From a virus (taxonomy: Duplodnaviria > Heunggongvirae > Uroviricota > Caudoviricetes): a DNA stretch of 64,000 nt. Each line of letters starts with the position of its first letter. Within the stretch, counting starts at the first letter, position 1. The stretch is from IMG/VR virus record IMGVR_UViG_2724679538_000004, positions 1-64,000 of that record; one strand, 5' to 3'. Positions 3,301 to 59,214 of this stretch are shown here, in pieces. The notes beneath the pieces are model-generated. The model worked only from the letters and a program-made list of their open reading frames with translations, did not search any database and was not told where the DNA came from. A program made the position numbers and the translations under genes.

Positions 3301-3756
3301 CACGCGGATCGCAAATTCTTTGTGGGGGGCTTGGGAAACAGTCAGTTTGGCTTTTACATGATCAACAACTCACGTACAGCAAATGGCACGGATGCCAACG
3401 CATATCTCCAAAATGATGGTACTTGGGTTTGTGGAGGTAATGGTAACTTTAACGATGTTTATATCCGCTCTGATGCCAGACTTAAAAGTAATTTCGCACC
3501 GATTAAAAATGCTCTGAGTAAAGTGAAAGCACTGAGCGGATTAATTTACGATAAAAGGGAAAATTTTCAATCTAGTACGATTCGCCGTGAGGCGGGGGTT
3601 GTTGCTCAGGAACTCCAAAAGGTTTTACCAGAAGCTGTTTCAGCTTACAAAGATGCAAATGGCGAAGATGTTCTGACTATTTCAAATTCTGCGCAAATAG
3701 CACTTCTTATTGAGGCTGTTAAAGAGCTGGCAGCAATCATTGAACAAAAAATATGA
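367..3756 (+). CDS. tail fibre protein with C-terminal S74-type intramolecular chaperone domain
   Basis: 1129 aa; long Ala/Ser-rich low-complexity repeats; two TPKAVKAAYD phage fibre repeats; C-terminus SDARLKSNF...GVVAQELQKVLPEAV...AVKELAAII matches S74 chaperone pattern; RBS AAGGAG upstream. Confidence 0.85.
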   Translation: MWYREGTITFTQGKSTLVGVGTKWNMTENGVLPGMIVIGPDNKLYEIKRVISDTNLTLVEAYTGETQSEVPCRIITTYEGDLTQFSARFTALMNRMSADSKTMRSWLTALDEVTIEREDGTEVTVKPLMQIVNEHNENVEWYKNNTDAIDAAGDKAREAAASAAVAAESANTAGEKASQASQSASAAADSQSAASASATAAKKSETNAESAYVAAAESASLASTKASEASTSASSASASKDAAKLSETNASSSANAAASFATEAENASKAAKTSETNAKASETAAEQSASSANSSKSAAEASASEASASADSASSSATAAGKSAESASTSAATATAKATEATEQATLASASVTAAKTSEENAKASEKNAQASMIAAAASAESAASSATEAVSSKDAAVTKATEAAESASTATTKASESSASADAAAKSKTAAESAATRAESAAERAEDIAAAVGIEDATLTTKGVVKLSSAINSESEELAATPKAVKAAYDLANSKYTAQDSTTAQKGLVQLSSDINSGSEAFAATPKAVKAAYDNAETRLRKDQNGADIPGKDTFVKNIGAAKAASGNISIGGDSNNWTTAQFIEWLESQGAFNHPYWMCKGSWAYAANKIITDTGCGNIQLSGAVVEVMGVREAMTIRVTTPTTATNGGTVKAQFTYINHGDAYAPGWRRDFNRAGDSMSGQLTLANMSQPLRSPGGGIFANDGNVYINKQGFAGWIDALFLKLTGGTLTGPLAFQNSNGKAFRVMTDHTPSLNTYMQIWGESSRPTVIELKDEKGYHFYSQRNTNDSITMSINGEVVSRSANAFRAAYGNYGFFIRNDGTTTYFLLTNSGDPLGGWSGLRPLYINNSTGRVTFGNGVDINNGAVINGGVGLGVTNALGGNSIVLGDNDTGFKQNGDGILDVYANNAHVFRFVNGTLQSLKPLSVTGDIASSAWVYANRYSINSGSGAWIDMRNQNVIFGKNAVSTSSAQALLRQDHADRKFFVGGLGNSQFGFYMINNSRTANGTDANAYLQNDGTWVCGGNGNFNDVYIRSDARLKSNFAPIKNALSKVKALSGLIYDKRENFQSSTIRREAGVVAQELQKVLPEAVSAYKDANGEDVLTISNSAQIALLIEAVKELAAIIEQKI

Positions 3757-3818
3757 TAATGTTGGAGAGGCTAAAGCCTCTCCCATAATAAACTGTCATA
3801 ATATTTGAGAGGGTTATT

Positions 3819-4601
3819 GTGTCAATTACAAAAGTTCCTGGATGGATAGGATCATCAGCGGTTTCAGAAACAGGGCAACGTTGGATGAGTGCTGCCCGCA
3901 CCACAGTCCAATTGTCCGCAGCAGGAAATATGTCACAGATGGGTGGTAGGTCAAAAGAGATTTACTACTCAATAGGGGCTAATCACAATTATAACAAAGA
4001 CACATTAATATCATATTTACGCTCCGTTGGCTCTACACCTGTAGTAGTTACTATTACAGGGGATTTAGTTTCTATAAGCAGTACAGTCCCTTGTCTTGAC
4101 TTTCCGGGTGACTTATCAAACTCATATATTAACCTCGTAATTAATAGTGGAGTTACCGTATATGGACGAGGTGGTAACGGGGGTAACAAAAGTAATGGTG
4201 CTGCTGGGGGAACTGCCATAAATAATGGAATTGGGACTCGTTTACGTATTACAAACAATGGAGCTATAGCCGGTGGTGGTGGTGGCGGCGGTGCTACCTA
4301 TGTGAAATCAAGTCTTTCAGATGGAGTATATGGTGGTGGCGGCGGCAGACCATTTGGTACTCGTGGTGCTTCTTCTGGCCCCATGAGTTCAAATTCCACA
4401 GACGCTACTTTAACAGCGGCTGGTAAAGGTGCGGTGTCAAAGGGAACTGGTGGCGCAGGTAATGGTGGCAACGTGGGTGCCGCTGGCTCTAACGGATATG
4501 GTGGTGGGACAATGTATAATGGTGGTGCAGGGGGCAAAGCGGTGGCAGGTAGTGCGCCAACATGGATTTCAGTTGGGTCGATATATGGCGCTCGTGTGTA
4601 A
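3819..4601 (+). CDS. gp38-like glycine-rich tail fibre adhesin
   Basis: GTG start with RBS; N-terminus VPGWIGSSAVSETGQRWMS resembles T2-type gp38 (from memory); poly-Gly runs (GGGGGGG, GGGGG) separating variable segments. Confidence 0.65.
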   Translation: MSITKVPGWIGSSAVSETGQRWMSAARTTVQLSAAGNMSQMGGRSKEIYYSIGANHNYNKDTLISYLRSVGSTPVVVTITGDLVSISSTVPCLDFPGDLSNSYINLVINSGVTVYGRGGNGGNKSNGAAGGTAINNGIGTRLRITNNGAIAGGGGGGGATYVKSSLSDGVYGGGGGRPFGTRGASSGPMSSNSTDATLTAAGKGAVSKGTGGAGNGGNVGAAGSNGYGGGTMYNGGAGGKAVAGSAPTWISVGSIYGARV

Positions 4602-4612
4602 GTACTTACCTA
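4597..4612. repeat. motif A copy
   Basis: TGTAAGTACTTACCTA overlapping stop codon of gp38-like gene. Confidence 0.7.
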
Positions 4613-4675
4613 CAAAAATGGAAAGAATTGTGGTATAAATTCGCCATCCCGATTTGACTTTTCATGGAGGAAAAC

Positions 4676-4999
4676 ATGTCGAACGAGATGGCGGGAGTTA
4701 CAACTGAACAGGTTGAACGCATCGCCTCAATCGTTGCTCGGGAAGTCGTAGGCAAATTAGGTAAAGAAATACGCGAGGAAATTGGCCAGGAGGTCAACGA
4801 CCAGCTTAAAACCTATTTTGGCGATATGACACCAGCGCAACACAGTATCCAACACTCCAACCTGGACAAGCTTCTTAATCGGCTGGATTCAATTTCAAGC
4901 GGCTTCTTTGGCGGCGTTATTTCAAAAATAACGTCGTTCCTTATTACCGCTCTGATTTTGGGTATTGCTGCTTATGGCGTCAAAAATGGACTGAAATAA
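4676..4999 (+). CDS. membrane protein with C-terminal TM helix; possible holin-like lysis protein
   Basis: GGAGG RBS 5 nt upstream of ATG 4676; single C-terminal hydrophobic helix ITSFLITALILGIAAYGV; position at head of lysis cassette. Confidence 0.35.
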   Translation: MSNEMAGVTTEQVERIASIVAREVVGKLGKEIREEIGQEVNDQLKTYFGDMTPAQHSIQHSNLDKLLNRLDSISSGFFGGVISKITSFLITALILGIAAYGVKNGLK

Positions 5000-6131: not shown

Positions 6132-6650
6132 TTATTCGAACAATTTTTCGATAGATTTTGTTGGATAGAACAAAGAACGCTCGTTGTTACCAACAAGCTG
6201 AATAAAGCCTAAACTTTTATAAAAAGCCCTGGCATTATCATTCAACGCCTCAACGAAAAGTCCATGAATACCTACAGCAAGAGAGGCATTGTACACAACG
6301 CGCATTGCATGTGTTACAAGCATTGAGCCAAGTCCTTGACCTTGAAGAGATTTGTCTAAAGCCAGCCTGCCTAAAGTGACACTTGGTACATTCCGATAAG
6401 GCACTTTCTTTTGTTGACTCCTTGAAGGTAAGGCCTCCTTCTCAAAGCAGCTGCCTGACAAAGTGTAATAGCCTAATACTCTTGGCTTTTCTTCTTTGGT
6501 GCAAAGGACATAAGCCCGAAGAATTTTGCCCTCATGCTGTCTTTTCAGGTGGTTGGTTAAAAATGCGTTTAGTGACTCTTCGCCGCAATCAAAACCATTC
6601 AGATCATAATCTTTCTCTCCAGAGAAAATCTCTATCGTCGTATTGCCCAC
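6132..6650 (-). CDS. GNAT acetyltransferase toxin (TacT/KacT-like)
   Basis: 172 aa, GNAT-like motifs (QGQGLG); immediately downstream of DUF1778-like antitoxin in same operon. Confidence 0.7.
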   Translation of the reverse strand: MGNTTIEIFSGEKDYDLNGFDCGEESLNAFLTNHLKRQHEGKILRAYVLCTKEEKPRVLGYYTLSGSCFEKEALPSRSQQKKVPYRNVPSVTLGRLALDKSLQGQGLGSMLVTHAMRVVYNASLAVGIHGLFVEALNDNARAFYKSLGFIQLVGNNERSLFYPTKSIEKLFE

Positions 6651-6657
6651 GAGTAAA

Positions 6658-6927
6658 CTACTCCATGCTTTTCAGACGATCAGCAGCCCGTTTCAGCTTA
6701 TCGTTCGGTGCCGGAGGATTGCTTATAGCATCCATAACCAGATTCCAGGATTCCTCACTTAGAATCAGTCTACGGTGTTGTTCTATAACTTTCGCGGCAC
6801 GTTCAGAGGCACTGCTAACCATGAACTGGGTAATGCTCTGGTTAGACATTGCGGCAGCTTCCTCGATGATGCTTTTATCGTCATCGGTTAATCTCAAATC
6901 GATGCGCTGCTTTTTCAGTGCTGACAT
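6658..6927 (-). CDS. DUF1778/RHH-type antitoxin (TacA/KacA-like)
   Basis: 89 aa, precedes GNAT toxin with 7-bp gap; typical TA architecture. Confidence 0.65.
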   Translation of the reverse strand: MSALKKQRIDLRLTDDDKSIIEEAAAMSNQSITQFMVSSASERAAKVIEQHRRLILSEESWNLVMDAISNPPAPNDKLKRAADRLKSME

Positions 6928-7195: not shown

Positions 7196-7216
7196 AGAAA
7201 ACAAATTGTTTCAAAC
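7196..7216. promoter_or_regulatory. motif B palindromic operator/promoter element
   Basis: AGAAAACAAATTGTTTCAAAC upstream of parA. Confidence 0.5.
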
Positions 7217-7244
7217 GACAAATATATACGTAAGGGACTCTCCA

Positions 7245-7913
7245 ATGACGAAGATCATTGTGGTTGGTGGAACAAAAGGCGGCCCCGGTAAATCTACCGT
7301 TGCCCAGCAAATCGCAGTTTGTCTCAAGATCAAAAAGAAAAAGAAAGTTCAAATCACCGATATTGATATTCAACGCACCACAACAAGCTGGTGCGAAGAC
7401 CGGCGTCAGAATGAAGAACTTGAGCTAATTCCATTCGCCTATGTGCCGGACGATATCGTTAAACACATCAAATCGCTTAAAGGGCGCTACGATTATGTTG
7501 TTATTGATGCTGGGGGCTTTGACTCCGAAATCCAACGACACGCAATGCTGTTGGCCGATTTCGTCGTTATCCCACTACGTCCTAAGCGTCGGGATTTGAA
7601 GTCGTTGCGTGATATTGATCCGATAGTTGATAACGTTCGCATCATTAACGACAAAGTGAAGGTCCGCGCGGTCATGAACCAATGCCCGGCTCTGCCATCA
7701 CAAGTGTCCCGCATTCTGGCAGCCAAAGAGATCGTTGAGACGTTTGGCATCGAATCTGCGCCAGTCAACCTGTACAACCGCAACGTCTATGACGACGCAG
7801 AAGAATCAGGTCGCTCTATCTTTGAAATGACAGGTAGTGAGCGTGACAAGAAGGCGGAAGCTGAGTTTGAAGAGTTTGTAGATTATCTATTGAGTCTGGA
7901 GGAAGAAGAATAA
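7245..7913 (+). CDS. parA: ParA-type partition ATPase
   Basis: Deviant Walker A KGGPGKST near N-terminus (MTKIIVVGGTKGGPGKST); RBS AAGGGA; followed by small overlapping partner gene. Confidence 0.8.
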   Translation: MTKIIVVGGTKGGPGKSTVAQQIAVCLKIKKKKKVQITDIDIQRTTTSWCEDRRQNEELELIPFAYVPDDIVKHIKSLKGRYDYVVIDAGGFDSEIQRHAMLLADFVVIPLRPKRRDLKSLRDIDPIVDNVRIINDKVKVRAVMNQCPALPSQVSRILAAKEIVETFGIESAPVNLYNRNVYDDAEESGRSIFEMTGSERDKKAEAEFEEFVDYLLSLEEEE

Positions 7914-8272
7914 TGTCCATGAAAATGGGAGACCTTGCAAAGCGCACTGAGCCTACTACACAGGTCAAAAACAACACGCCGTTGCGCCAGCCAGTCAGAC
8001 CACAGGGCCGCCCAACTCGTGGTAAAGAAAAAATCAAAAGCCGTACTATGTCGCTGGAAGACGAGTACTTTGAACTTCTGGAGATGATGAAATGTATCCC
8101 TCGTTTTGAGAAGTTCACACGTTCTGACGTTATTCGTGCAGCCATTTTCCATCTTGCTGAAAAATCGCCGCAAGAAATCGAAGATATCGTGAAACTGAAC
8201 GATGCAATTACAGCTGCCGACGTCACTATGCGTACTGATGAAATCAAACGTGAGCTGATGAAGAAAGGTTAA
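7913..8272 (+). CDS. putative partition centromere-binding protein (ParG/ParB-like)
   Basis: 119 aa, start overlaps parA stop (TAATG); basic N-terminus, position typical of partner of small ParA. Confidence 0.45.
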   Translation: MSMKMGDLAKRTEPTTQVKNNTPLRQPVRPQGRPTRGKEKIKSRTMSLEDEYFELLEMMKCIPRFEKFTRSDVIRAAIFHLAEKSPQEIEDIVKLNDAITAADVTMRTDEIKRELMKKG

Positions 8273-8324
8273 AAATGATGCATTGGCGTTAACGTTAACA
8301 GTGCGCCAATGCATCATAACAGTG

Positions 8325-9143
8325 TCAGACTAATGCCGCGCTAATACTGCGTTCAGTCTTGCCCACTCCCACCTTCACAAAAGGGCTACCGTAGCTTGGT
8401 GGTTTCTTGATTAATTTTCCTACGTATAGTTCTCTAATATGTTCATCGGCTATTCTGCCAACAAATTCATAACGTTTGGTATCAGGGCTAAGAGCTATAT
8501 CTCGTGTAAAGTACTGCTGAGAACCGGCTTTGACCCAGCATTCTATCTGATAAACCTCCATTATTAGCCCACCATATGTAGCGTAGGCATATTTGAGATT
8601 CTCATCTCTGGGAACCTTTGCCCATACGCCACGCGTAGCTTCATATAATGCCAGAGCGGACATTCCTGACTTGTAGGTGCTGTTTAGCAGAAAGGCTAAT
8701 CCGGCGTGCTCAGGAGCAATTTCAGTTTCCTCTTGTAGAACTAAGTGATGGTAGGCATCCAGTGATATTCTTCCCATCAGGGAACCACTTCCTCGTACTT
8801 TATTAGTTAGTTCTCCAACCCCCATAAGATCAATGCATGTTGCCTCAACAAGTTTGGCTGTGCTTTCATCCATGCCATGACGAAGAATATCTATGCCTAA
8901 TTTCTTTTGCGCCAAAAGTTCTTTGATTCGTCTTGATTTAGGAGAATCATCGAGGTACTTGATGTGGTCAAGACAACGAGTCGATTTGCCTTTTCCTATG
9001 TAAAACGGTCTTTTCATCTTGTCTTCTGTATCATAGAGACAGTAAACATAGTATTTAGCCTTATCCAACGATTTCGCGTACACCGATAAATCGTACATTG
9101 TTTCGTCCCTTAGCAACTGAATAATGCGTTCTATTTTACACAT
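8325..9143 (-). CDS. GIY-YIG domain nuclease
   Basis: YYVYCLYD..(7)..PFYIGKGKSTR matches GIY-YIG core with conserved Arg and downstream Glu; C-terminal 160 aa unassigned. Confidence 0.55.
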   Translation of the reverse strand: MCKIERIIQLLRDETMYDLSVYAKSLDKAKYYVYCLYDTEDKMKRPFYIGKGKSTRCLDHIKYLDDSPKSRRIKELLAQKKLGIDILRHGMDESTAKLVEATCIDLMGVGELTNKVRGSGSLMGRISLDAYHHLVLQEETEIAPEHAGLAFLLNSTYKSGMSALALYEATRGVWAKVPRDENLKYAYATYGGLIMEVYQIECWVKAGSQQYFTRDIALSPDTKRYEFVGRIADEHIRELYVGKLIKKPPSYGSPFVKVGVGKTERSISAALV

Positions 9144-9332
9144 AAGTATTTAATTAACTGTAAAATTTCTGGGTGTCTAAGACGACAACTTAAACCTGCT
9201 TCTGTATATATATTTAATAAGTTACTTATTATTTATATACAGAAGCAGGCTCTTTAAAGTACACGTCAGAACAACTCCCTTCTGTTTCTACTTCCAAAAA
9301 CAAGCACCAGTCGCTATGATTCGCTCAAAATG

Positions 9333-9352
9333 ATAAGTAAGTAGTTACCTAT
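9333..9352. repeat. motif A copy
   Basis: ATAAGTAAGTAGTTACCTAT abutting ATG 9351. Confidence 0.7.
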
Positions 9353-10106
9353 GAGCGCGAATCATATGAGTCAAATTTTTTTTAACACTATAGATAACGA
9401 CCAGTACGACTTCATGACTGAATGGGACACCTGCGTTATGGACAAGTGGGTAGCTGACAACATCGGTCTGTCACGTTGTAAAGACGAGGCAGAATTGTTT
9501 GAGACGAAGTGGTTTGATTACCGCGACATGCATCCGCTCATGGCTACATGTTTGTTCACAGAGGCATACAAGCGCCAGTACGCCAATATCATGCTGACAC
9601 ATGGTCGTGAGCATTTTGAAACAGCGCCATATTGCACTGGACTAAAGCGTTTGCCCTACCAGGAGTTGTCCGCTGCAAACAAAACTTCTTTATGGAAAGC
9701 ACGCCAGTTTGCGGATCAGTACTGCTGCACATATGACTACTTCATTTCAACCGTTCTCTCTGCTGCCGCAACGCGTCTGTGGGACAAGTTGCCTCGACCA
9801 CAGCATCTATGGCAGCCAGAGCTAATTGAAATTTTCGAGAATAAGTTAGCTAAGCGATCGTTAACCCGTCTGGAAGACTCTCTGGTGAGCTTTAAGCACA
9901 TGGGCGACACGCAATATAACCCGATTCAGGAACGTTATTTTGAGTGGGTTCTGGAGCGTTTACGTGGTGTTGCCCGTGATAAGCGGATTCGAACAATCTT
10001 TTCAGCTATCTGGCTTATGGAAATAGTGCCAGAGCGCCTTATTTACGCCCACTTCCCAGAAGAACTGGAAGAAGCGCGGCGATTCGTTGATCCCCTGTCT
10101 CATTAA
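9351..10106 (+). CDS. hypothetical protein (possible replication accessory/helicase loader by position)
   Basis: 251-aa ORF immediately upstream of helicase gene; no motif recognised. Confidence 0.4.
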   Translation: MSANHMSQIFFNTIDNDQYDFMTEWDTCVMDKWVADNIGLSRCKDEAELFETKWFDYRDMHPLMATCLFTEAYKRQYANIMLTHGREHFETAPYCTGLKRLPYQELSAANKTSLWKARQFADQYCCTYDYFISTVLSAAATRLWDKLPRPQHLWQPELIEIFENKLAKRSLTRLEDSLVSFKHMGDTQYNPIQERYFEWVLERLRGVARDKRIRTIFSAIWLMEIVPERLIYAHFPEELEEARRFVDPLSH

Positions 10107-10114
10107 TAAATACT

Positions 10115-10134
10115 AGAAAACAATTTGTTTAAAA
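10115..10134. promoter_or_regulatory. motif B element
   Basis: AGAAAACAATTTGTTTAAAA 16 bp upstream of helicase RBS. Confidence 0.5.
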
Positions 10135-10149
10135 GACAAAGGAAAGCAC

Positions 10150-11490
10150 ATGACCGAACTTTGCCATACAGGACGCGGTTTGTCAGAGGAGTTTGACGAT
10201 GACTTCCAGAACAGACTTGCGGCTTATTATTGTCGCGATCATGAGTTCTTGACTCGTGCAGGAGACCTTGTAGCGCCTAATCAATTTGAAAATGCAGCCA
10301 ATGCCATACTGGTAAATATGGTTTCTGGCTATTACCGGATGTACAAAAGCGCACCGTCGTCTTCTGCAATTCTGGATATGCTTAAGCGTGCGAAACGCGA
10401 TAAGACCATCCGCGAAGAACTCTTCGCCGACGTTGTTGCGGCGTTTAAGCGCATCCTTGCAGAGAAGCTGTCTGATACCTCGTACATGGTTGACCAGGTA
10501 TCGACTTTTGCAAAAAGCGTGGCGTTTGATGAAGCTCTGATTAAGGCTGCTGAGCTGAAAGAAAAGGGTGACTTTCAGGGGGCTATGGCAATCATGGCTA
10601 AAGTTCAGCAGATCGGATCGAACGAAGCGACCGGAATCTATGATTATTACACCTCAGCAAGTGAGCGGTTGAAAGCACGTGAATATGAGGCTTCAGCGGA
10701 GTATGTGCCAAACAGCATTACTACTGGACTGCCGCTGCTTGACAGGTTGCTGTACCAAAAAGGCTGGGCAAAGCGAGAAATGGTCCTCTTCATGGGATTC
10801 GCTAAGTCCGGTAAATCGACCGCAATGGGTGAGTTTTCCATTAACGCAACGCTCGCAGGCCACAATGTTCTGTATCTTTCGCTGGAGGTTCACACCACCA
10901 TTTTAGCCGACCGTTTCGATGCGAGGTTGTCGGAAACTGAAATGTCCAAGCTGGTGGAACGGCGCGATGATGTTCATCGTAAGTTGGCAGAGTTGGGAGC
11001 CACAAAGGGGATTGGCAGCTTATGGGTTGTTGAACGCCCATCAGGAAGTATGTCACCGGCAGATTTGGACCGTATGCTTAACAGCATGAAAGCCAATGGC
11101 ATGGTGCCTGACATGGTTGTCGTCGACTACGCAGATCTGATGCGTGCCAGCTATGACCTGCGTGATGATCGCGCCAACATACGTAGTATCTATACCGATT
11201 TACGTGCGCTCTATGACAAGCATAACGTTGCTGGCATCACTGCGTCACAGACAAACCGTGAGGGTGGGGCGTCAGAAGTGGCTACTATGATGCACGCTGC
11301 TGATAACATTGAAAAAGTTCGTATTGCCGACCTTGTTATCACCATCAACAAAACAGAAGAGGAAGAAGCGAAAGGCGAAGCTCGTCTCTACTTTGCTGGT
11401 TCGCGTAACCAGCAAGGTGGCATCAGTATTCGCGTTAAGCAAAACCTTGAACAAATGCGCTTTATCGAGCGCATTATGGACGTCACCTAA
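10150..11490 (+). CDS. DnaB-like replicative DNA helicase
   Basis: Walker A GFAKSGKST, RecA-like C-terminal domain with arginine-finger region; RBS AAAGGAAAGCAC. Confidence 0.8.
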   Translation: MTELCHTGRGLSEEFDDDFQNRLAAYYCRDHEFLTRAGDLVAPNQFENAANAILVNMVSGYYRMYKSAPSSSAILDMLKRAKRDKTIREELFADVVAAFKRILAEKLSDTSYMVDQVSTFAKSVAFDEALIKAAELKEKGDFQGAMAIMAKVQQIGSNEATGIYDYYTSASERLKAREYEASAEYVPNSITTGLPLLDRLLYQKGWAKREMVLFMGFAKSGKSTAMGEFSINATLAGHNVLYLSLEVHTTILADRFDARLSETEMSKLVERRDDVHRKLAELGATKGIGSLWVVERPSGSMSPADLDRMLNSMKANGMVPDMVVVDYADLMRASYDLRDDRANIRSIYTDLRALYDKHNVAGITASQTNREGGASEVATMMHAADNIEKVRIADLVITINKTEEEEAKGEARLYFAGSRNQQGGISIRVKQNLEQMRFIERIMDVT

Positions 11491-11495
11491 AAAAA

Positions 11496-11527
11496 AGCGT
11501 GGAGAAAGCCCTCCACGCTTGATTTCA
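11496..11527 (+). terminator. rho-independent terminator
   Basis: Hairpin AGCGTGGAG-aaagcc-CTCCACGCT followed by T-rich tract. Confidence 0.55.
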
Positions 11528-11572
11528 TTGAAGAAACTAACTTTCTTTTGCCAAACCACAAAAGAAAAACAC

Positions 11573-12754
11573 ATGAGCCTCTATGTTATATCAACACCGA
11601 GGCTGGTCACAATATTGCCTGTTAAAAGTGAAATTGTCGTGAGTGAGCTGAGAGAACTTATTTCAGAACTGGATTTCGAACAGTGGTTAGATACTGAGGG
11701 CATTATCTATCGGCGTGGCGGTGTAAGTGCCAAAGGGCGTGAGGTAAATATTAAAGAGTGCCCTGTATGTGGAAGTACTAACTGGAAGGTTTATTTCAAT
11801 CTTAACAATGGGGTAGGTAAATGTTTTGCTGGCGACCATCCAGAAGAAATTCAGTTTAACAAGCTGGTATTCCTTAAGCACTACAGCGGTAAATCACGCA
11901 GAGACTTTGAGGAATATGTCCAGAACGCGCTGCTTTCGCAGGGATGGGCACCGAAGAAAGAAGAGATTGTACTTGTCAGCGAAGTCGAGTTAGAAGGACC
12001 AGTCGCTCTCCCTCGTCATTACGAACTTCCCATAGATGGTCGTTTGCCTGACTATTTGGTCGAACGCCACATTACACCAGAGATGGCACGGTACTTCGAT
12101 CTCCGATACTGCGTGGAAGGCAAACACGCTTATGTTGATCCCTATACAGATCAAGTGAAAGGTCAGGTATTTGATATGAGAATCCTGATACCTGTATACG
12201 ATCTAGATGGCGTGATGAAAACGTTTCAGGGGCGAGATATCACTGGAGAAGCTGAACGACGTTATCTATTCCCAATGCAATTACCAGCTTCCGGCAAATT
12301 CCTTTACAACGGCCACAATGCAGTAGGCAAACAGACTGTCGTTGTATGCGAAGGCGCATTCGACGTTATGGGCGTCAAACGTGCCATCTTTTCCGAAGAG
12401 ACTTTGCGCGAGTACGTAGAGCCAATTGGAACGTTCGGGATGCATTTATCTGGGACCACTACGCAAGATGCAGAAGACCAGCTTGGGGCATTCCTGACTT
12501 TAAAGGCGAGCGGATTACGTAATGTGATCATGATGTGGGACAGCGAAAAGCAAGCGATACGTAACACGATGTCTGCGGCAAGGCGGCTAACAAGCATTGG
12601 TCTGAATGTGAAAGTCGCCTGTCTTGGAGAAGAAGGACTCGACCCCGGCGATGCAACGCCGGAGCAGATCATCAAAGCCTACTATCGCGCCAAACCGTAT
12701 ACCAAACAGTTAGAACTGTTAAGCAAGATCAAAGGCATAGCGGCATTAGTTTGA
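11573..12754 (+). CDS. DNA primase (zinc ribbon + TOPRIM)
   Basis: CPVCGSTNW..CFAGDH zinc-binding motif; TOPRIM-like VVVCEGAFD and MMWDSEKQ; start chosen at ATG 11573 with conserved AAAAGAAAAACAC leader. Confidence 0.75.
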   Translation: MSLYVISTPRLVTILPVKSEIVVSELRELISELDFEQWLDTEGIIYRRGGVSAKGREVNIKECPVCGSTNWKVYFNLNNGVGKCFAGDHPEEIQFNKLVFLKHYSGKSRRDFEEYVQNALLSQGWAPKKEEIVLVSEVELEGPVALPRHYELPIDGRLPDYLVERHITPEMARYFDLRYCVEGKHAYVDPYTDQVKGQVFDMRILIPVYDLDGVMKTFQGRDITGEAERRYLFPMQLPASGKFLYNGHNAVGKQTVVVCEGAFDVMGVKRAIFSEETLREYVEPIGTFGMHLSGTTTQDAEDQLGAFLTLKASGLRNVIMMWDSEKQAIRNTMSAARRLTSIGLNVKVACLGEEGLDPGDATPEQIIKAYYRAKPYTKQLELLSKIKGIAALV

Positions 12755-13891
12755 AGTGGTGTCGGTCACGTACACATTGACCGAAAATGATTTAACCTCT
12801 GTTTTGAAATTATCCGTCATTACAGCAAGATAGGCATTCTTGGTATCTCTGAACTGTTTCAGGATGATTTGTACATTATCCGTGCAAACAAAAGAGGTGG
12901 CAAGATTGCCCCCTTTCTCTGAAAAATCTTTCAAAAATGTACAGTCGGCTTTGCCGCCATTGGCGGTAAAGGTGGCATCGTCTCCCTGCCAGATAAATGT
13001 TGCGTTAACGCCTTTATCAATAGATTTTGCAATGAGCCGCTGGGTGGCGGATTTTGCTTTAGGGTTTGCAGCTGGTGGTTGATATTTACCGCTTTCTTTC
13101 AGTTCCGCAATGTAATCACAGCCTTTTTTATCTTCTTTATCGCAAGCAGCCTGATAAAGCTCTGCTGCTTTTTTATAGTCCTTTTTAACACCCTCCCCAT
13201 TCTCATACATTATGCCAAGATTTGTCATGGCATCGGCGTTTCCGAGTTCAGCAGCTTTTTTATACCACTTAATTGCTTCGGCATCGTTGCGTTTAACACC
13301 TAAACCGTCATCGTATAAGGTGCCTAATGCGAACATGCCATCTGAACTACCTTGATCCGCCGCTTTTTTGTAATAAGTAAAAGCTTTTTTATAACTCTTT
13401 TGTACACCTTTACCATATTGGTAATACACACCAAGAAGGTAGCTAGCTTTAACATACCCGGCATCAGAGGCTAATTTGAAGTATTTAATGGCGAGCGCAT
13501 GATCTACTTTACCAAGCATCCCCTTTTGATAAATAGCACCAAGATTGTTGTAGGCTCTACCTTCACGAGCATCTCCCGCAAGTTTGTAGTACTCAACAGC
13601 TTTATTTAAGTCTTTATCTACACCCTCGCCAAATGTGTACATAACCCCAAGTGCATAATATGCTACTTTGTCTCCCTTTTCTGCAGCGAGATCAATCCAC
13701 TTCTTGGCCTCAACTACATCCTTATCAAAACCATTGATACCATCAAAATAATTTGTACCTAACTCACTTTGAGCTGCGGCATTTCCCGCGGTAGCGGCTT
13801 CTATCAGTGTTTGCTTATTGTCTGCGTTAGCGAATCCAGCACCAAAAAGTAAAGTTAATGCCAGCAACGATGATGGTTTTATGAATTTCAT
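12746..13891 (-). CDS. secreted Sel1-like repeat (SLR/TPR-like) protein
   Basis: Signal peptide MKFIKPSSLLALTLLFGAGFANA; at least five repeats of the type A.YYLG.MY..G.GV.KD...A..WYKKAA; opposite strand to neighbours. Confidence 0.75.
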   Translation of the reverse strand: MKFIKPSSLLALTLLFGAGFANADNKQTLIEAATAGNAAAQSELGTNYFDGINGFDKDVVEAKKWIDLAAEKGDKVAYYALGVMYTFGEGVDKDLNKAVEYYKLAGDAREGRAYNNLGAIYQKGMLGKVDHALAIKYFKLASDAGYVKASYLLGVYYQYGKGVQKSYKKAFTYYKKAADQGSSDGMFALGTLYDDGLGVKRNDAEAIKWYKKAAELGNADAMTNLGIMYENGEGVKKDYKKAAELYQAACDKEDKKGCDYIAELKESGKYQPPAANPKAKSATQRLIAKSIDKGVNATFIWQGDDATFTANGGKADCTFLKDFSEKGGNLATSFVCTDNVQIILKQFRDTKNAYLAVMTDNFKTEVKSFSVNVYVTDTTSN

Positions 13892-14123
13892 ATTTTTTGT
13901 TCTGTTGATATAGGATGAACAGTTTAGACGCGGCAAGCGTCAAGTTTGCGAAAAGAGTACTTAAATTTAGTTATTCTGTCAGCTTTGTTAATATAGTTTA
14001 TGGTTGGTAAAGTTAATAGATAACTAATAACTATAAGAAATAATGAGTTGTTCAATTATTGTGATACAACTCGTGTTTTGGTTAACTAATACCTACGATA
14101 AATATAAATTAAGGAAAGTCAAA

Positions 14124-18922: not shown

Positions 18923-18997
18923 GATGGTGTAGCTCAGCGGTAGAGCAGTTGGCTGTTAACCAACTGGTCGGTGGTTCGAATCCACCCACCATCGCCA
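18923..18997 (+). tRNA. tRNA-Asn (anticodon GTT)
   Basis: Hand-folded cloverleaf: acceptor GATGGTG/CACCATC, D-stem GCTC/GAGC, anticodon loop CTGTTAA, T-arm GGTGG-TTCGAAT-CCACC, encoded CCA. Confidence 0.85.
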
Positions 18998-19002
18998 ATT
19001 TA

Positions 19003-19089
19003 GGGGAGTTAGTCCGTAGAGGTAGCGGTGTAGACTGTAAATCTACTGTCATTGCGACTCGGGTGGTTCGACTCCATCACTCCCCACCA
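19003..19089 (+). tRNA. tRNA-Tyr (anticodon GTA), long variable arm
   Basis: Acceptor GGGGAGT/ACTCCCC, anticodon arm GTAGA-CTGTAAA-TCTAC, T-loop GGTTCGACTCC, encoded CCA. Confidence 0.75.
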
Positions 19090-19093
19090 AATT

Positions 19094-19169
19094 GCCGGTT
19101 TAGCTCAGTTGGTAGAGCAGTCGCTTTGTAAGCGAATGGCCAGCGGTTCAAGTCCGTTAACCGGCACCA
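19094..19169 (+). tRNA. tRNA-Thr (anticodon TGT)
   Basis: Acceptor GCCGGTT/AACCGGC, D-arm TAGCTCAGTTGGTAGAGC, anticodon loop TTTGTAA, T-loop TTCAAGT, encoded CCA. Confidence 0.75.
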
Positions 19170-28867: not shown

Positions 28868-31800
28868 ATGAAGGCACTGATGGTTAGAACTGACTTTTCA
28901 CTTGGAGAGTCAGCTCTAAAAGCAGAAAACGCGGTGAAGATTGCCAGAGAAGCTGGCTACACCGCTGTAATTTCAGCAGATAGCATGAACATTGCGAGTG
29001 TTATTCCACTACAACGCGCCGCTGGTGACGACATGGCGGTAATTTGTGGTGTGAAACTAAACATTGTTGATGATCCCACATACGAGCACCGGGCTAAACT
29101 TGCTAAAGAGTCTATGGGATGTATGGAATCATTAGAGCGTGGGCGGAACTACTCGTTTACCGCACTAATTAAAAATGAGCAGGGATATCGCGACATCTGC
29201 GAACTAATGACGGTGGCAAACACACGAGAACAGTTCTACTTTGTGCCCCGTCTCTCGCTCGATCAGTTGGTTTCTACATATGCCAAAGGCAACATCATCC
29301 TGCTCACTTCCGACATCGGTAGCGTGTTCCAACGCAACGATTTTGCAAAAATCATAAGCTCACTGATTACAGCGGGTGGAAAAGACAACTTCTATAGTGT
29401 GGTTTATCCGCACCCTACCCCATTCTACGACCAGATTAACGTCCGGGCGATGAAAGTCGCCAGCGCACTGAAAATAGAGCCAGTGGCGTTCTATCCCGCT
29501 TATTACGAATCGATCGACGATGCAGACATTAAAGACATTGCGCACATGGTTACGAACAACATCAAAATCGACCAGCCGCATCGTCTGCGTATTCCCCACC
29601 AGCGAGATAACGCCGTCAATGGTCGCCGCCATCTCCTTGAGGCTCTTAAAGCCTTCTCCGTTCGCATGGATGTGCCGGTGACAGCTTCAATGGCCTCCAC
29701 GACACAGGACGCCATTATCGAAGCCTGCACGTGGCGCTGGCATGAATTGCCACCAGCACTTCCTAAGATGGCGGACGACGAGCCTGTAACTCTGATGAAG
29801 CTGGCTGTTGCGGGGCTGCGCAAACGTCTTACTACAAAAGAGTTTGGTTATACACCACCGGCTTCTGAGCACCGAGTGTATGTTGATCGCCTTAAGTACG
29901 AAATGGACACGCTGACCCGCCTGGGATTTTGTGGTTACTTCCTGATGGTACGCGATCTGATGAATCACAGCCGTGAAACAGGCATTCCTGTCGGGCCTGG
30001 TCGTGGTTCCTCTGCTGGTTCTCTGGTGGCATGGTGCATAGGCATAACCAACGTCGATCCTATCCGTCACGGTCTTCTGTTTGAGCGTTTCATCAACCCT
30101 GAGCGTCTCGACTTACCGGATGCGGATCTGGATTTCAGCCAGGCTCGTCGTCATGAGGTGATCGAGTATCTGAATGAGCGCTATGGCGAAGATTACGTTG
30201 CCGGCATTCCAAACTTCACCTATCTGGGCGCGGCATCTGCGCTGCGTGACACTGCACGTATTTACGGTGTCGATGCTGCGGATATGGCGGTATCCAAAGA
30301 GTTCAAGAATCTGGAGGACGATAGTCTGTCGCTGGAAGAGCTGCGCGAGCAACTGGCTAGCCTGGACAAATACGCCACGAAAAACCCGGAAGCATTCAAA
30401 GCGGCGTGTAAGTTGCAAAGCCTGATGCGTGGTTTTGGTCGTCACGCTGCGGGGATGATCGTCGCTGGCGTTCCATTAGTAGAGCGCACGCCCGTCGAGC
30501 TGCGTGGCAATGCTCGATGTATTGCGTTCGATAAACGTTACTGCGAGGCGATGGGGCTGATTAAGTTGGACGTTCTCGGTCTGGCAACGCTCGATCTTCT
30601 GGATAGCGCGAAACGCTACATCAAAGAGAGTACCGGGGAAGACATCAATCTCGACGCTATCCCACTGGACGATCGCAAGGTTCTGGATGGGTTCGCTGCA
30701 GGGTACACGCAGGGCGTATTCCAGCTGGAGTCCGGCCCCATGCGTAAGCTGCTTAAAGATCTGGGCGGTGGCATCGAGCCAATGAGCTTCAAAACCGTTG
30801 TCGCCACGACCGCCCTCTTCCGACCTGGACCGATTCAATCCGGCATGTTGGATGACTATGTTTCCGTTGCGAAAGGATTTATGACGCCTACATCGCTACA
30901 TCCTGTCTTGGATGAACTGACCTCTGAAACAAATGGAGTGATTCTCTATCAGGAACAAACGATGAACGCAACAAGGCTTCTTGCTGGTTTCACAATGGCC
31001 GAGGCGGATGGTGTGCGTTCAGCAATCGGTAAGAAGAACATGGAAAAGATGAGGAGCATGGGTGAGAAATTTGTCATTCAGGCTCAAGCTGGGTGGATCG
31101 ACGTAGAGCTTGAAAATGGCGCAATACAACGGATTCATCGCGCAGAACATTTTAAATGCGAGGACGGTACTCTGAGGACAGTTGAAGAGGCGTTGGAGCA
31201 TGGAGTGAAGCTGCCCATGCCAGTTGTGCGCGTTACAACGTCACATCCAGGTCTGTCTGAGACGAAGGCAAAAGAGATATGGACTGCATTTGAGAAAAAC
31301 GGAGCCTATCAGTTCAATAAATCACACTCAGTTGCTTATTCTTTAATCAGTTATCAGTCTATGTGGCTAAAGACGCACTACCCTGCTGAGTTCTTCGCAG
31401 CTGCGCTCACCATTCTGGGCGAGGATAAGCATCAGGGGCTGGTGAAGGATGCGCTGACCTATGGCATTCGCGTATTGCCACCAGACGTTAATGTGTCATC
31501 TAACCGAATTGAGATCCGCACACTCGAAGACGGCAGTCAGGCACTGTATGCGCCATTCTCTGCTGTTAAAGGTTGTTCTGAAAATGGTTGTCAGGCAATT
31601 ATGCGTGCGCGTGAGAAAGTTGGTGGCAAATTCGAGTCAGTGGCACAATTCGATGAAGCGGTCGAGAAGCGTGCATGTAACAGTCGTGTACGCGAGTCGC
31701 TTCATAAAGTAGGGGCTTTTGCGTCAATTGAGTCAGGCAGTCTGCCAGCAACTGATCCTGAACGACTGCGCGACCAGGCTGAGCTGATGGGCAATCTCGT

Positions 31801-32418: not shown

Positions 32419-32689
32419 AGAATTATGGCGCTTGTTGAGGAAGTCACTCCTCTTACGCACTTTGTTTTGCCATGCCGGCAGTTAGCTTCTGCCTTTGACT
32501 ATTCATGCGGCAACCCCGCATTTCGCCACAATGGGCAATTCACTTTAATGGAATAAACTGGCCGTTGTGTCGATTTAATTAGCATGGCCTTACCATGCTA
32601 ATTTATTCAACTTGTACAATCCTACAAATCTATCCACTCAGGCTTACACCGTCTTCGTTATTGTAGAAATGAGGATCATCAGCGTTGAA

Positions 32690-32905
32690 TCAGCTTAGAG
32701 CAACGACATTTGCTGCTGCTGGGCCTTTAGCCCCATTCTCGATAGAGAATTCGACCTGCTGGCCTTCTTCCAAAGTGCGGAAATTATTACTCTGAATTGC
32801 CGAAAAATGTACAAAAACATCTTTACTGCCATCAGCAGGAGAAATAAAGCCAAAGCCTTTATCAGAGTTAAACCATTTTACTAAACCAGTCATTTTATTA
32901 GACAT
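32690..32905 (-). CDS. cspA: cold-shock protein (CspA family)
   Basis: [38 protein letters not shown] near-identical in pattern to E. coli CspA; long untranslated leader upstream. Confidence 0.85.
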
Positions 32906-33234
32906 AGATATTACCTTCTTAATTTTGTGAGCCACATAGTGCGGCGAGAATTTGATCTGTATAGATTGGGACTTACTTAGGCACTTAAGGAGGAGACTCA
33001 CGAAGAAGGGAAATCAGAAGATAACACTGAACTGAGACTGCTTTACTAAAACTGCTTACATAAGGTCTGTCTTGCAAACCAACGATGCTATTAACGCATA
33101 CCCTTTCTTTTCATGCAACCTTTATTTTTCAAAGATAACTAATTTTTGTCACCGTTGGTTTAGTAAACGTTAACGAACCAGACGATGACAGACACCTTTA
33201 CAGAGAACAGATGCCCGCCAATTGGCGGGCATCA

Positions 33235-58438: not shown

Positions 58439-59032
58439 ATGATAGCGGCTGAGAAAATTAAAAAACGAGAGCGTGACCCTTCTCTTAGAGATCTATGGCG
58501 CACACCTCAATGGTTGTTTAACGCTATCCAGAAATACTTAGGTGTTCAATTCGATGTGGACGTTGCCTGCAACAAAGACAACGCTCTTCTTGCAAATTAC
58601 ATAGGCGTGGAGCGTGATGCTTTGAAAAGCAACTGGGGAGAACCGGGCACTATAGCATTCCTAAACCCGCCCTACTCGAAAATTTCCCCGTGGATCGAGG
58701 CCGCAATACGCGAACAAGCACGAGGTGTCACTACAGTTATGCTTATACCACAATCCCTTGATACAAAATGGTATGAGCGGGCCACTGAGCACGCAAACGA
58801 AACGGTTATTCTGTCTGGAGGTCGTGTGGCTTTCGTGGAACCAGACGTTAATTTGGGATTTGTGGAGGTAAACATTAACCCTGGTGGAAGTATGCTTCTG
58901 ATTTTTAGAGGCTTTTGTCAGGGAGCTGGACACACGATTAGAAAAATTCCTCTGGCGGTGTTGAAACAGCTGGGGGGTTATGATCCTGCCAATGTTTCCA
59001 GAAAGAAAAGAACATACAAGAAGGCAGCTTAA
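58439..59032 (+). CDS. DNA N6-adenine methyltransferase (phage Dam-type)
   Basis: Catalytic NPPY motif (FLNPPYS); 197 aa. Confidence 0.75.
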   Translation: MIAAEKIKKRERDPSLRDLWRTPQWLFNAIQKYLGVQFDVDVACNKDNALLANYIGVERDALKSNWGEPGTIAFLNPPYSKISPWIEAAIREQARGVTTVMLIPQSLDTKWYERATEHANETVILSGGRVAFVEPDVNLGFVEVNINPGGSMLLIFRGFCQGAGHTIRKIPLAVLKQLGGYDPANVSRKKRTYKKAA

Positions 59033-59214
59033 GTTCTGTCTGGGAGTGTTCTTGGACCTGCTTCTGTATAAATAAATACATACTAATATATTAATATACA
59101 GATGCAGGTTTTTTGTAGCAAACGTGCCAGACCTTGACAACATCCCAGAACCCACTAGAAACCCTCCCCAGACGCTCTAGAATCAATTTTGAGTAGCAAA
59201 GTAAGGAAACACAC

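Follow-up and report, generated by a model that had tools for sequence, protein, structure and literature searches.

The minus-strand gene at 8325–9098 of the window, the 64,000-nucleotide stretch of viral DNA analyzed here, encodes with a probability of about 0.8 a divergent member of the PD-T4-3/CMoRE family, that is, a predicted single-protein, modification-dependent (type IV) restriction endonuclease. A product recorded as a "hypothetical protein" in more than 130 sequenced Escherichia phage-plasmids would thus acquire a testable role, the restriction of phages with hypermodified DNA. The family itself was characterized between 2022 and 2026 and is already picked up by defense-finder tools in SSU5-like phage-plasmids. 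What is added here is modest and consists of the placement of the protein in a lid-less clade, a defense hotspot with its boundaries, a palindrome read as a recurrent backbone terminator, and a hint of a PUA-like sensor domain. Clinically important lineages of E. coli, Shigella, and Salmonella commonly carry SSU5-like phage-plasmids, so the defense cargo of these elements bears on phage-therapy host range.

Gene structure and family assignment

The features discussed below are the following.

7206–8272, plus strand: left flank, a ParA-type ATPase (7206–7913) and a 119-aa small partner (7913–8272); Pfam AAA_31, MipZ, and ParA; phrog_164 and phrog_5111.
8275–8317, minus strand: 14-bp hairpin without mismatches, with TTTTT after it on the minus strand, from an inverted-repeat search and direct reading of the sequence.
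8325–9098, minus strand: predicted nuclease gene of the PD-T4-3/CMoRE family, 257 aa; the maximal open reading frame extends to 9143.
8364–8768, minus strand: C-terminal domain (residues ~111–245), homologous to the modified-cytosine sensor domain of CMoRE and weakly PUA-like.
8814–9098, minus strand: N-terminal segment of the nuclease, with N99 just past its end.
9099–9193, minus strand: cassette-specific upstream region of about 95 nt, conserved with PhiR41_1 only and not with Cyrano or SSU5.
9195–9249, plus strand: 55-bp near-palindrome, a backbone hairpin present with every cargo type.
9351–12754, plus strand: right flank, the replication operon, with a phrog_2500 gene (9351–10106), a DnaB-like helicase, and a primase (Pfam, PHROG).
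59057–59108, plus strand: second hairpin copy, 24 nt past the stop codon of a methyltransferase-like gene (58439–59032) and followed by TTTTTT.

The first-pass annotation had described a 272-aa minus-strand protein with a GIY-YIG core, situated between the partition and the replication genes, and each of these points was confirmed. The open reading frame runs from 8325 to 9143 and contains YYVYCLYD...PFYIGKGKSTR; its sole Pfam match is PF22945 (LEM-3-like GIY-YIG; 31.3 bits against a cut-off of 27, residues 47–119), an NCBIfam search gave no match, and the genes on both flanks carry Pfam and PHROG calls of their own. Translation more likely begins at M16 (the ATG at 9098, for a product of 257 aa) than at the ATG at 9143, because the PHROG 5356 alignment begins at residue 16 of the 272-aa frame, because the homologues, of 245–255 aa, begin at that position, and because AAGGGA lies 8 nt 5' of that ATG, whereas no Shine-Dalgarno sequence precedes the ATG at 9143. 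The residue numbers that follow for the nuclease refer to the 257-aa protein. The hairpin at 8275–8317 is likely the gene's own intrinsic terminator and would belong to the cassette; an equivalent is present in PhiR41_1. A terminator scan of 8200–9450 did not call this hairpin, because its loop is 15 nt long. In the same interval, no minus-strand sigma-70-like promoter was found for the nuclease, and by eye only poorly spaced hexamers could be seen.

Searches with the whole protein converged on a single family. PADLOC assigned it to PD-T4-3 (PDLC04031; E 5.3e-24, residues 26–246, profile positions 11–238 of 256), and a phmmer search of the PDB matched 9U7U, 9U7Z, 9U75, and 9U8D alone (E 7e-16 and 2e-15, residues 12–230). 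These four entries are crystal structures of CMoRE, the new name of PD-T4-3 (Liu et al., Nat Commun 2026, PMC12923530). An AlphaFold2 model of the nuclease (pLDDT 84.9) submitted to Foldseek returned the four PD-T4-3 entries at ranks 1–4 (E ~1e-12, probability 1.0), with UvrC GIY-YIG domains next. The global TM-score was low, probably, in our reading, because the two domains are oriented differently to each other; residues 111–257 were therefore modeled alone (pLDDT 80.6). The C-terminal portion of about 160 residues had been described as unassigned. The PDB and PADLOC sequence matches together with Foldseek now assign it as a CMoRE sensor domain.

CMoRE couples an N-terminal GIYxY-YIG nuclease to a C-terminal domain that binds 5hmC; the enzyme is a tetramer, degrades 5hmC- and 5ghmC-containing DNA at CN11/N9G, and blocks T2, T4, and T6 by direct defense without abortive infection (PMC12923530). 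The E. coli CMoRE taken as reference (locus L013, 5956–6729) is 98% identical to 9u75, as counted over the printed alignment, and follows the numbering of that paper. The window nuclease is 33% identical to it (E 2e-20), and its identity to any assayed enzyme, the PD-T4-3/CMoRE proteins of E. coli ECOR68, O157:H7, and APEC O1 included, is no more than about 33%. An exhaustive homologue search yielded 1806 clusters at E <= 1e-3 and 655 at E <= 1e-10, from which 108 full-length representatives were aligned with the window nuclease and two CMoRE sequences (111 sequences in total). The GIYxY-YIG tyrosines and the catalytic Arg/Glu pair are conserved (Y17, Y19, Y33, R41, and E85, corresponding to Y17, Y19, Y31, R39, and E93 of CMoRE), with the tyrosines, R41, and E85 kept in at least 108 of the 111 sequences; N99 is conserved as well, both in the alignment with CMoRE and across the 111 sequences. 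Both domains are under purifying selection, with a dN/dS of 0.08 against the PhiR41_1 orthologue.

The cargo slot and the palindrome that bounds it

By nucleotide comparison, the window is recognizable as an SSU5-like phage-plasmid. It is about 85% identical to the Escherichia SSU5-like phage-plasmids PhiR41_1, CMS-2020a, and Cyrano and to several hundred PLSDB "plasmids," and no record in the phage collections or PLSDB was closer than about 85–86% over long stretches. With tblastn, the nuclease was located at an identity of at least 90% in 135 of the 219 PLSDB records that share the par module, and copies of 60–80% identity occur on other plasmids (tblastn). It occupies a slot that extends from the stop codon of the parB-like gene (at 8272) to the palindrome and whose content varies among relatives. 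The slot holds the nuclease in PhiR41_1; a DUF2971 protein (PADLOC candidate PDC-S31) in Cyrano, SSU5, and Buttiauxella; PD-T7-5 in Cronobacter pCS1 (E 5.5e-138); a KAP-family NTPase (PDC-S49) in pGMI17-003_2; and two unknown genes in SSU5 and a Salmonella plasmid. In E. coli 2014C-3307 the slot is empty, with 30 nt between stop codon and palindrome.

The same picture emerged from IMG/VR, where 80 loci were retrieved with the rep protein and both flanks were present in 74. The occupants of these 74 slots were as follows.

Nuclease: 24 loci.
352-aa unknown protein (phrog_22329) alone: 12 loci.
DUF2971 protein alone: 9 loci.
KAP NTPase: 6 loci.
SSU5_035/036 pair: 6 loci.
Empty: 5 loci.
352-aa phrog_22329 protein with DUF2971: 4 loci.
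PD-T7-5, with or without DUF2971: 4 loci.
SSU5_035/036 pair with DUF2971: 3 loci.
Lipoprotein-like gene: 1 locus.

The par-rep slot is thus a defense hotspot, and the nuclease is swappable accessory cargo within it. No description of this slot was found in the literature on SSU5 defense hotspots and phage PhiR41_1. For SSU5 phage-plasmids of clade J, a preprint lists DefenseFinder hits to PD-T4-3 (in E. coli and Shigella) and to PD-T7-5 (bioRxiv 10.1101/2025.09.12.675607), and we infer that the PD-T4-3 hit is the slot nuclease gene, because tblastn finds a single homologous place per record. With its precise bounds, the par stop codon and the terminator hairpin, and with several occupants of no known function, the slot offers a place for defense-gene discovery.

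Three of the other occupants deserve mention in their own right. The phrog_22329 protein (351–352 aa) is present in 16 of the 74 loci: alone at 3662–4720 on the minus strand of L019 and in L023, L032, L033, L037, L038, L059, L062, L076, L083, L087, and L092, and together with DUF2971 in L077, L089, L091, and L093. It had no Pfam, PADLOC, or meaningful PDB match, and its position makes it a candidate defense gene. The SSU5_035/036 pair (phrog_22270 and phrog_17322) was located at 4068–5112 of L003, at 5071–6112 of L008, and in L058, L066, L080, L085, L086, and L090, sometimes accompanied in the slot by DUF2971. In L069 (3976–4653, minus strand) the occupant is a protein of 225 aa that carries a lipoprotein signal peptide (phrog_1353) and may be a surface or superinfection-exclusion factor.

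The inverted repeat that had been noted at 9194–9250 is real: its 19-nt arms (9195–9213 and 9231–9249) are 95% complementary, and the exact 14/15-nt arm pattern was met in none of 100 shuffles. It had been placed in a divergent promoter region. The arrangement is divergent, with the minus-strand nuclease on one side and the plus-strand rep gene on the other; as to a promoter region, no sigma-70 promoter was seen for the nuclease, and the palindrome is a hairpin of the backbone. Both arms occur in Cyrano and SSU5, which have no nuclease, in the empty-site plasmid, and in nearly all of the 80 IMG/VR loci, and nucleotide similarity to SSU5 starts at about 9193. Since the arms are present regardless of cargo, the palindrome is independent of the nuclease cassette. 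The idea that it serves as the operator of the nuclease was likewise rejected, as the hairpin is there with or without the gene. In the surveyed loci the right arm ends 92–114 nt upstream of the rep start codon, and at empty sites the hairpin lies 33–34 nt past the parB-like stop.

A search of the window with the arms gave four matches, a number reached in none of 100 shuffles. The second copy (59057–59108) has the same position in Cyrano, after an annotated adenine methyltransferase. The complete genome of Cyrano (OV696614.1) contains three copies (31159–31211, 78084–78138, and 108342..17); one lies ahead of the rep operon, one behind the adenine methyltransferase gene, and one shortly before terS. 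Every copy begins 22–34 nt past the stop codon of a plus-strand gene, and a CCAGA(A/C)C motif is conserved downstream of each. The RNA hairpin of the window palindrome has a dG of -27 kcal/mol (z -6.7), within a range for the palindrome hairpins overall of -22 to -33 kcal/mol (z -3.4 to -9.8). Of the 79 tails listed, 76 read TCTTTT; the tail in the window itself (CTCTTTAAAG) is weaker than those of its relatives. The built-in terminator scan of 8200–9450 did not call the palindrome, and Rfam at gathering thresholds returned nothing in 8200–9400 or around 59.0–59.2 kb.

The palindrome is most likely an intrinsic terminator read on the plus strand; in that role it would mark the end of the par operon and of the cargo slot and keep the replication operon insulated. 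A tentative alternative is that it acts, instead of or besides termination, as a protein-binding operator for a phage-plasmid regulator over several operons. In favor of such a role, each genome has near-identical arms of 14–15 nt in three places, always directly ahead of a major transcription unit (terS, the rep operon, or the operon that follows the methyltransferase), and CCAGA(A/C)C is conserved after each copy; shared sequence is rare among unrelated terminators. The way in which the arms vary, however, is strand-asymmetric: when 15 distinct arm pairs were read as plus-strand RNA, 190 Watson-Crick pairs, 14 G-U pairs, and 6 mismatches were counted, as against 190, 3, and 17 on the minus strand, in loci that are related and represent few independent events. 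Arm position 9 runs through a U-A, U-G, and C-G series, and position 5 shows a compensated U-A. The tolerance of G-U on the plus strand together with the U-rich tail argues for an RNA hairpin read on that strand, and the near-universal TCTTTT and the regular spacing after plus-strand stop codons also speak against the operator and for the terminator.

Sensor domain, missing lid, and predicted specificity

When searched alone, the C-terminal domain aligned with CMoRE at an E-value of 6e-9 and 31% identity, and ten of its residues are invariant in both clades (H131, N139, R156, W159, W188, R209, F212, G214, Y225, and G227). It was classed as a CMoRE-fold modification-sensing domain. The authors of the CMoRE structure reported no structural homologue for the C-terminal domain (PMC12923530). 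With the predicted model of the domain as query, structural scores were obtained with ASCH (2kku, 5.6; 5guq, 5.0) and EVE domains (2ar1, 5.0; 2gbs, 4.7; THYN1 with 5mC DNA, 4.5), YTH domains (4.4–4.8), the type IV enzyme VcaM4I (4.2), and archaeal McrB N-domains (4.1). These scores lie in the grey zone and carry no sequence signal with the known PUA-like reader-nuclease fusions; the agreement among the ASCH, EVE, YTH, VcaM4I, and McrB matches suggests that the sensor is a divergent PUA-like barrel. Such a sensor would fit a common architecture of type IV enzymes.

The nuclease departs from CMoRE most visibly at the lid. In CMoRE an acidic α2–α3 loop blocks the active site, and neutralization of the loop leads to cutting of normal DNA and to toxicity; the acidic lid is regarded as a family hallmark, present in "most" members, though not all (PMC12923530). 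The CMoRE lid segment comprises 23 residues with GEVAATDDDELLSN and a DDDE/DDDD run. The corresponding H45–L61 segment of the window nuclease has only 15 residues, IKYLDDSPKSRRIKE (YLDDSPKS), lacks the 8-residue extension and the acidic run, and is acidic at "DD" only. The short 15-residue form was found in 67 of the 111 aligned sequences, and an acidic run of at least three residues in 4 of the 111, two of which are CMoRE itself. By this alignment, the window nuclease belongs to a large lid-less branch of the PD-T4-3/CMoRE superfamily. The missing lid poses the question of how this clade avoids cutting host DNA, and the clade is a source of enzymes possibly useful for 5hmC mapping. Smaller differences from CMoRE are a 4-residue deletion ahead of the RHG motif, a 4-residue insertion (SGMS) and a 5-residue deletion in the sensor domain, and the replacement of the dimer-interface residue L96 by C88, an invariant Cys within the lid-less clade; V92 of the CMoRE tetramer interface is conserved as V84. 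[quoted passage not shown] Since this contact is a main-chain atom and the linker around it aligns poorly, the sequence does not reveal which substrate the enzyme prefers.

By homology, the C-terminal domain would recognize a modified base in incoming phage DNA, which in the characterized enzymes is 5-hydroxymethyl- or glucosyl-hydroxymethyl-cytosine, and the N-terminal GIYxY-YIG domain would then cleave, sparing the unmodified DNA of the host and the phage-plasmid. Direct defense against T-even-like phages is the expected result, for the lysogen as well as for the phage-plasmid itself. As accessory cargo, the gene is inserted in inverse orientation between the par stop codon and the likely backbone terminator hairpin and has a likely terminator of its own. 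We infer the substrate modification, the defense phenotype, and the expression signals from homology at about 33% identity. Of the two defensive roles that had been proposed earlier, an anti-phage nuclease is the reading that the PD-T4-3/CMoRE homology of both domains bears out; nothing in the analysis supports an anti-plasmid role, and one native-host study reported that PD-T4-3 did not affect the vertical transmission of a plasmid (bioRxiv 10.1101/2024.12.20.629700).

An enzyme of the same family and architecture with another specificity (a Mu-type modified adenine or arabinosyl-hmC), or with self-protection that does not depend on a lid, appears unlikely, yet it has points in its favor. The lid is missing in the window nuclease and in most of its nearest relatives, the sensor is only 31% identical to that of CMoRE and carries the insertion and deletion given above, and the family is plastic. 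PD-T4-3Capno from Capnocytophaga, a modification-dependent nuclease of the same family from a distant host, differs, by its published description, in that it cleaves Mu DNA too (Rodriguez-Rodriguez et al. 2025, PMC12366544), so specificity is not fixed across the PD-T4-3 family. Against a changed specificity, the ten sensor residues from H131 to G227 are invariant between the clades, and homologues from distant phyla almost always restrict T4 and depend on cytosine modification (PMC12366544). A broader proposal joins several of these strands: the lid-less clade would read another hypermodification or spare its own DNA without a lid, the sensor may be PUA-like, and the slot would be a hotspot with the phrog_22329 protein and the SSU5_035/036 pair as candidates; we advance it as speculative.

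The homing question and other features of the window

The first-pass annotation had also considered a homing-type endonuclease, which in its concrete form would be a free-standing, Seg-like GIY-YIG enzyme that cuts the empty par-rep junction of sister phage-plasmids. Although a GIY-YIG nuclease does lie between conserved genes here, empty sites exist in relatives, and distant phage homologues are annotated as "putative homing nuclease" in some records, this explanation is highly improbable: the C-terminal domain has the CMoRE sensor fold instead of the DNA-binding domain of a homing endonuclease, Pfam detected no NUMOD, HTH, or zinc-finger module in the nuclease (PF22945 being the sole match), seven or more unrelated types of cargo occur in the slot, several being known defense genes or candidates for such, and close homologues stand alone in unrelated chromosomal and plasmid contexts (next to an rRNA-methyltransferase-like gene on a Providencia chromosome and, elsewhere, on an Enterobacter plasmid). 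Compared with I-TevI, the T4 Seg proteins, and T4 EndoII, the window nuclease has a putative base-modification reader as its C-terminal domain in place of a sequence-reading DNA-binding module, and its gene does not appear to belong to an intron or intein. Also considered, and rejected, was a part for the protein in partition or replication.

Full-length two-domain homologues of 28% identity were observed in Serratia phage Moabite (L018, 2968–3732) and in about 15 other jumbo-phage records. They come from virulent phages of Serratia, Klebsiella, and Pectobacterium, where they are annotated as homing nucleases; they may be modification-dependent nucleases directed against competing phages. Neither the jumbo phages nor the Providencia and Enterobacter settings hint at homing.

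Elsewhere in the window, several features were recorded alongside the nuclease. A GNAT-family toxin with a DUF1778/RHH antitoxin (KacT/TacT-like) is encoded at 6132–6927 on the minus strand, between the lysis cassette and parA. This interval is also variable: SSU5 and several E. coli plasmids have two hypothetical genes there, and Buttiauxella p1WJP83 has an additional restriction endonuclease. Directly after the primase gene, at 12746–13936 on the minus strand, comes a gene for a secreted Sel1-repeat (TPR-like) protein; only some relatives have it, which points to a further accessory slot. Four tRNA genes (Asn, Tyr, Thr, and Ser) are clustered at 18923–19902 on the plus strand. At 32665–33083 on the minus strand, Rfam detected a full-length cspA thermoregulator (185.7 bits), a match that implies a cold-shock protein gene with a predicted regulatory 5'UTR on the phage-plasmid.
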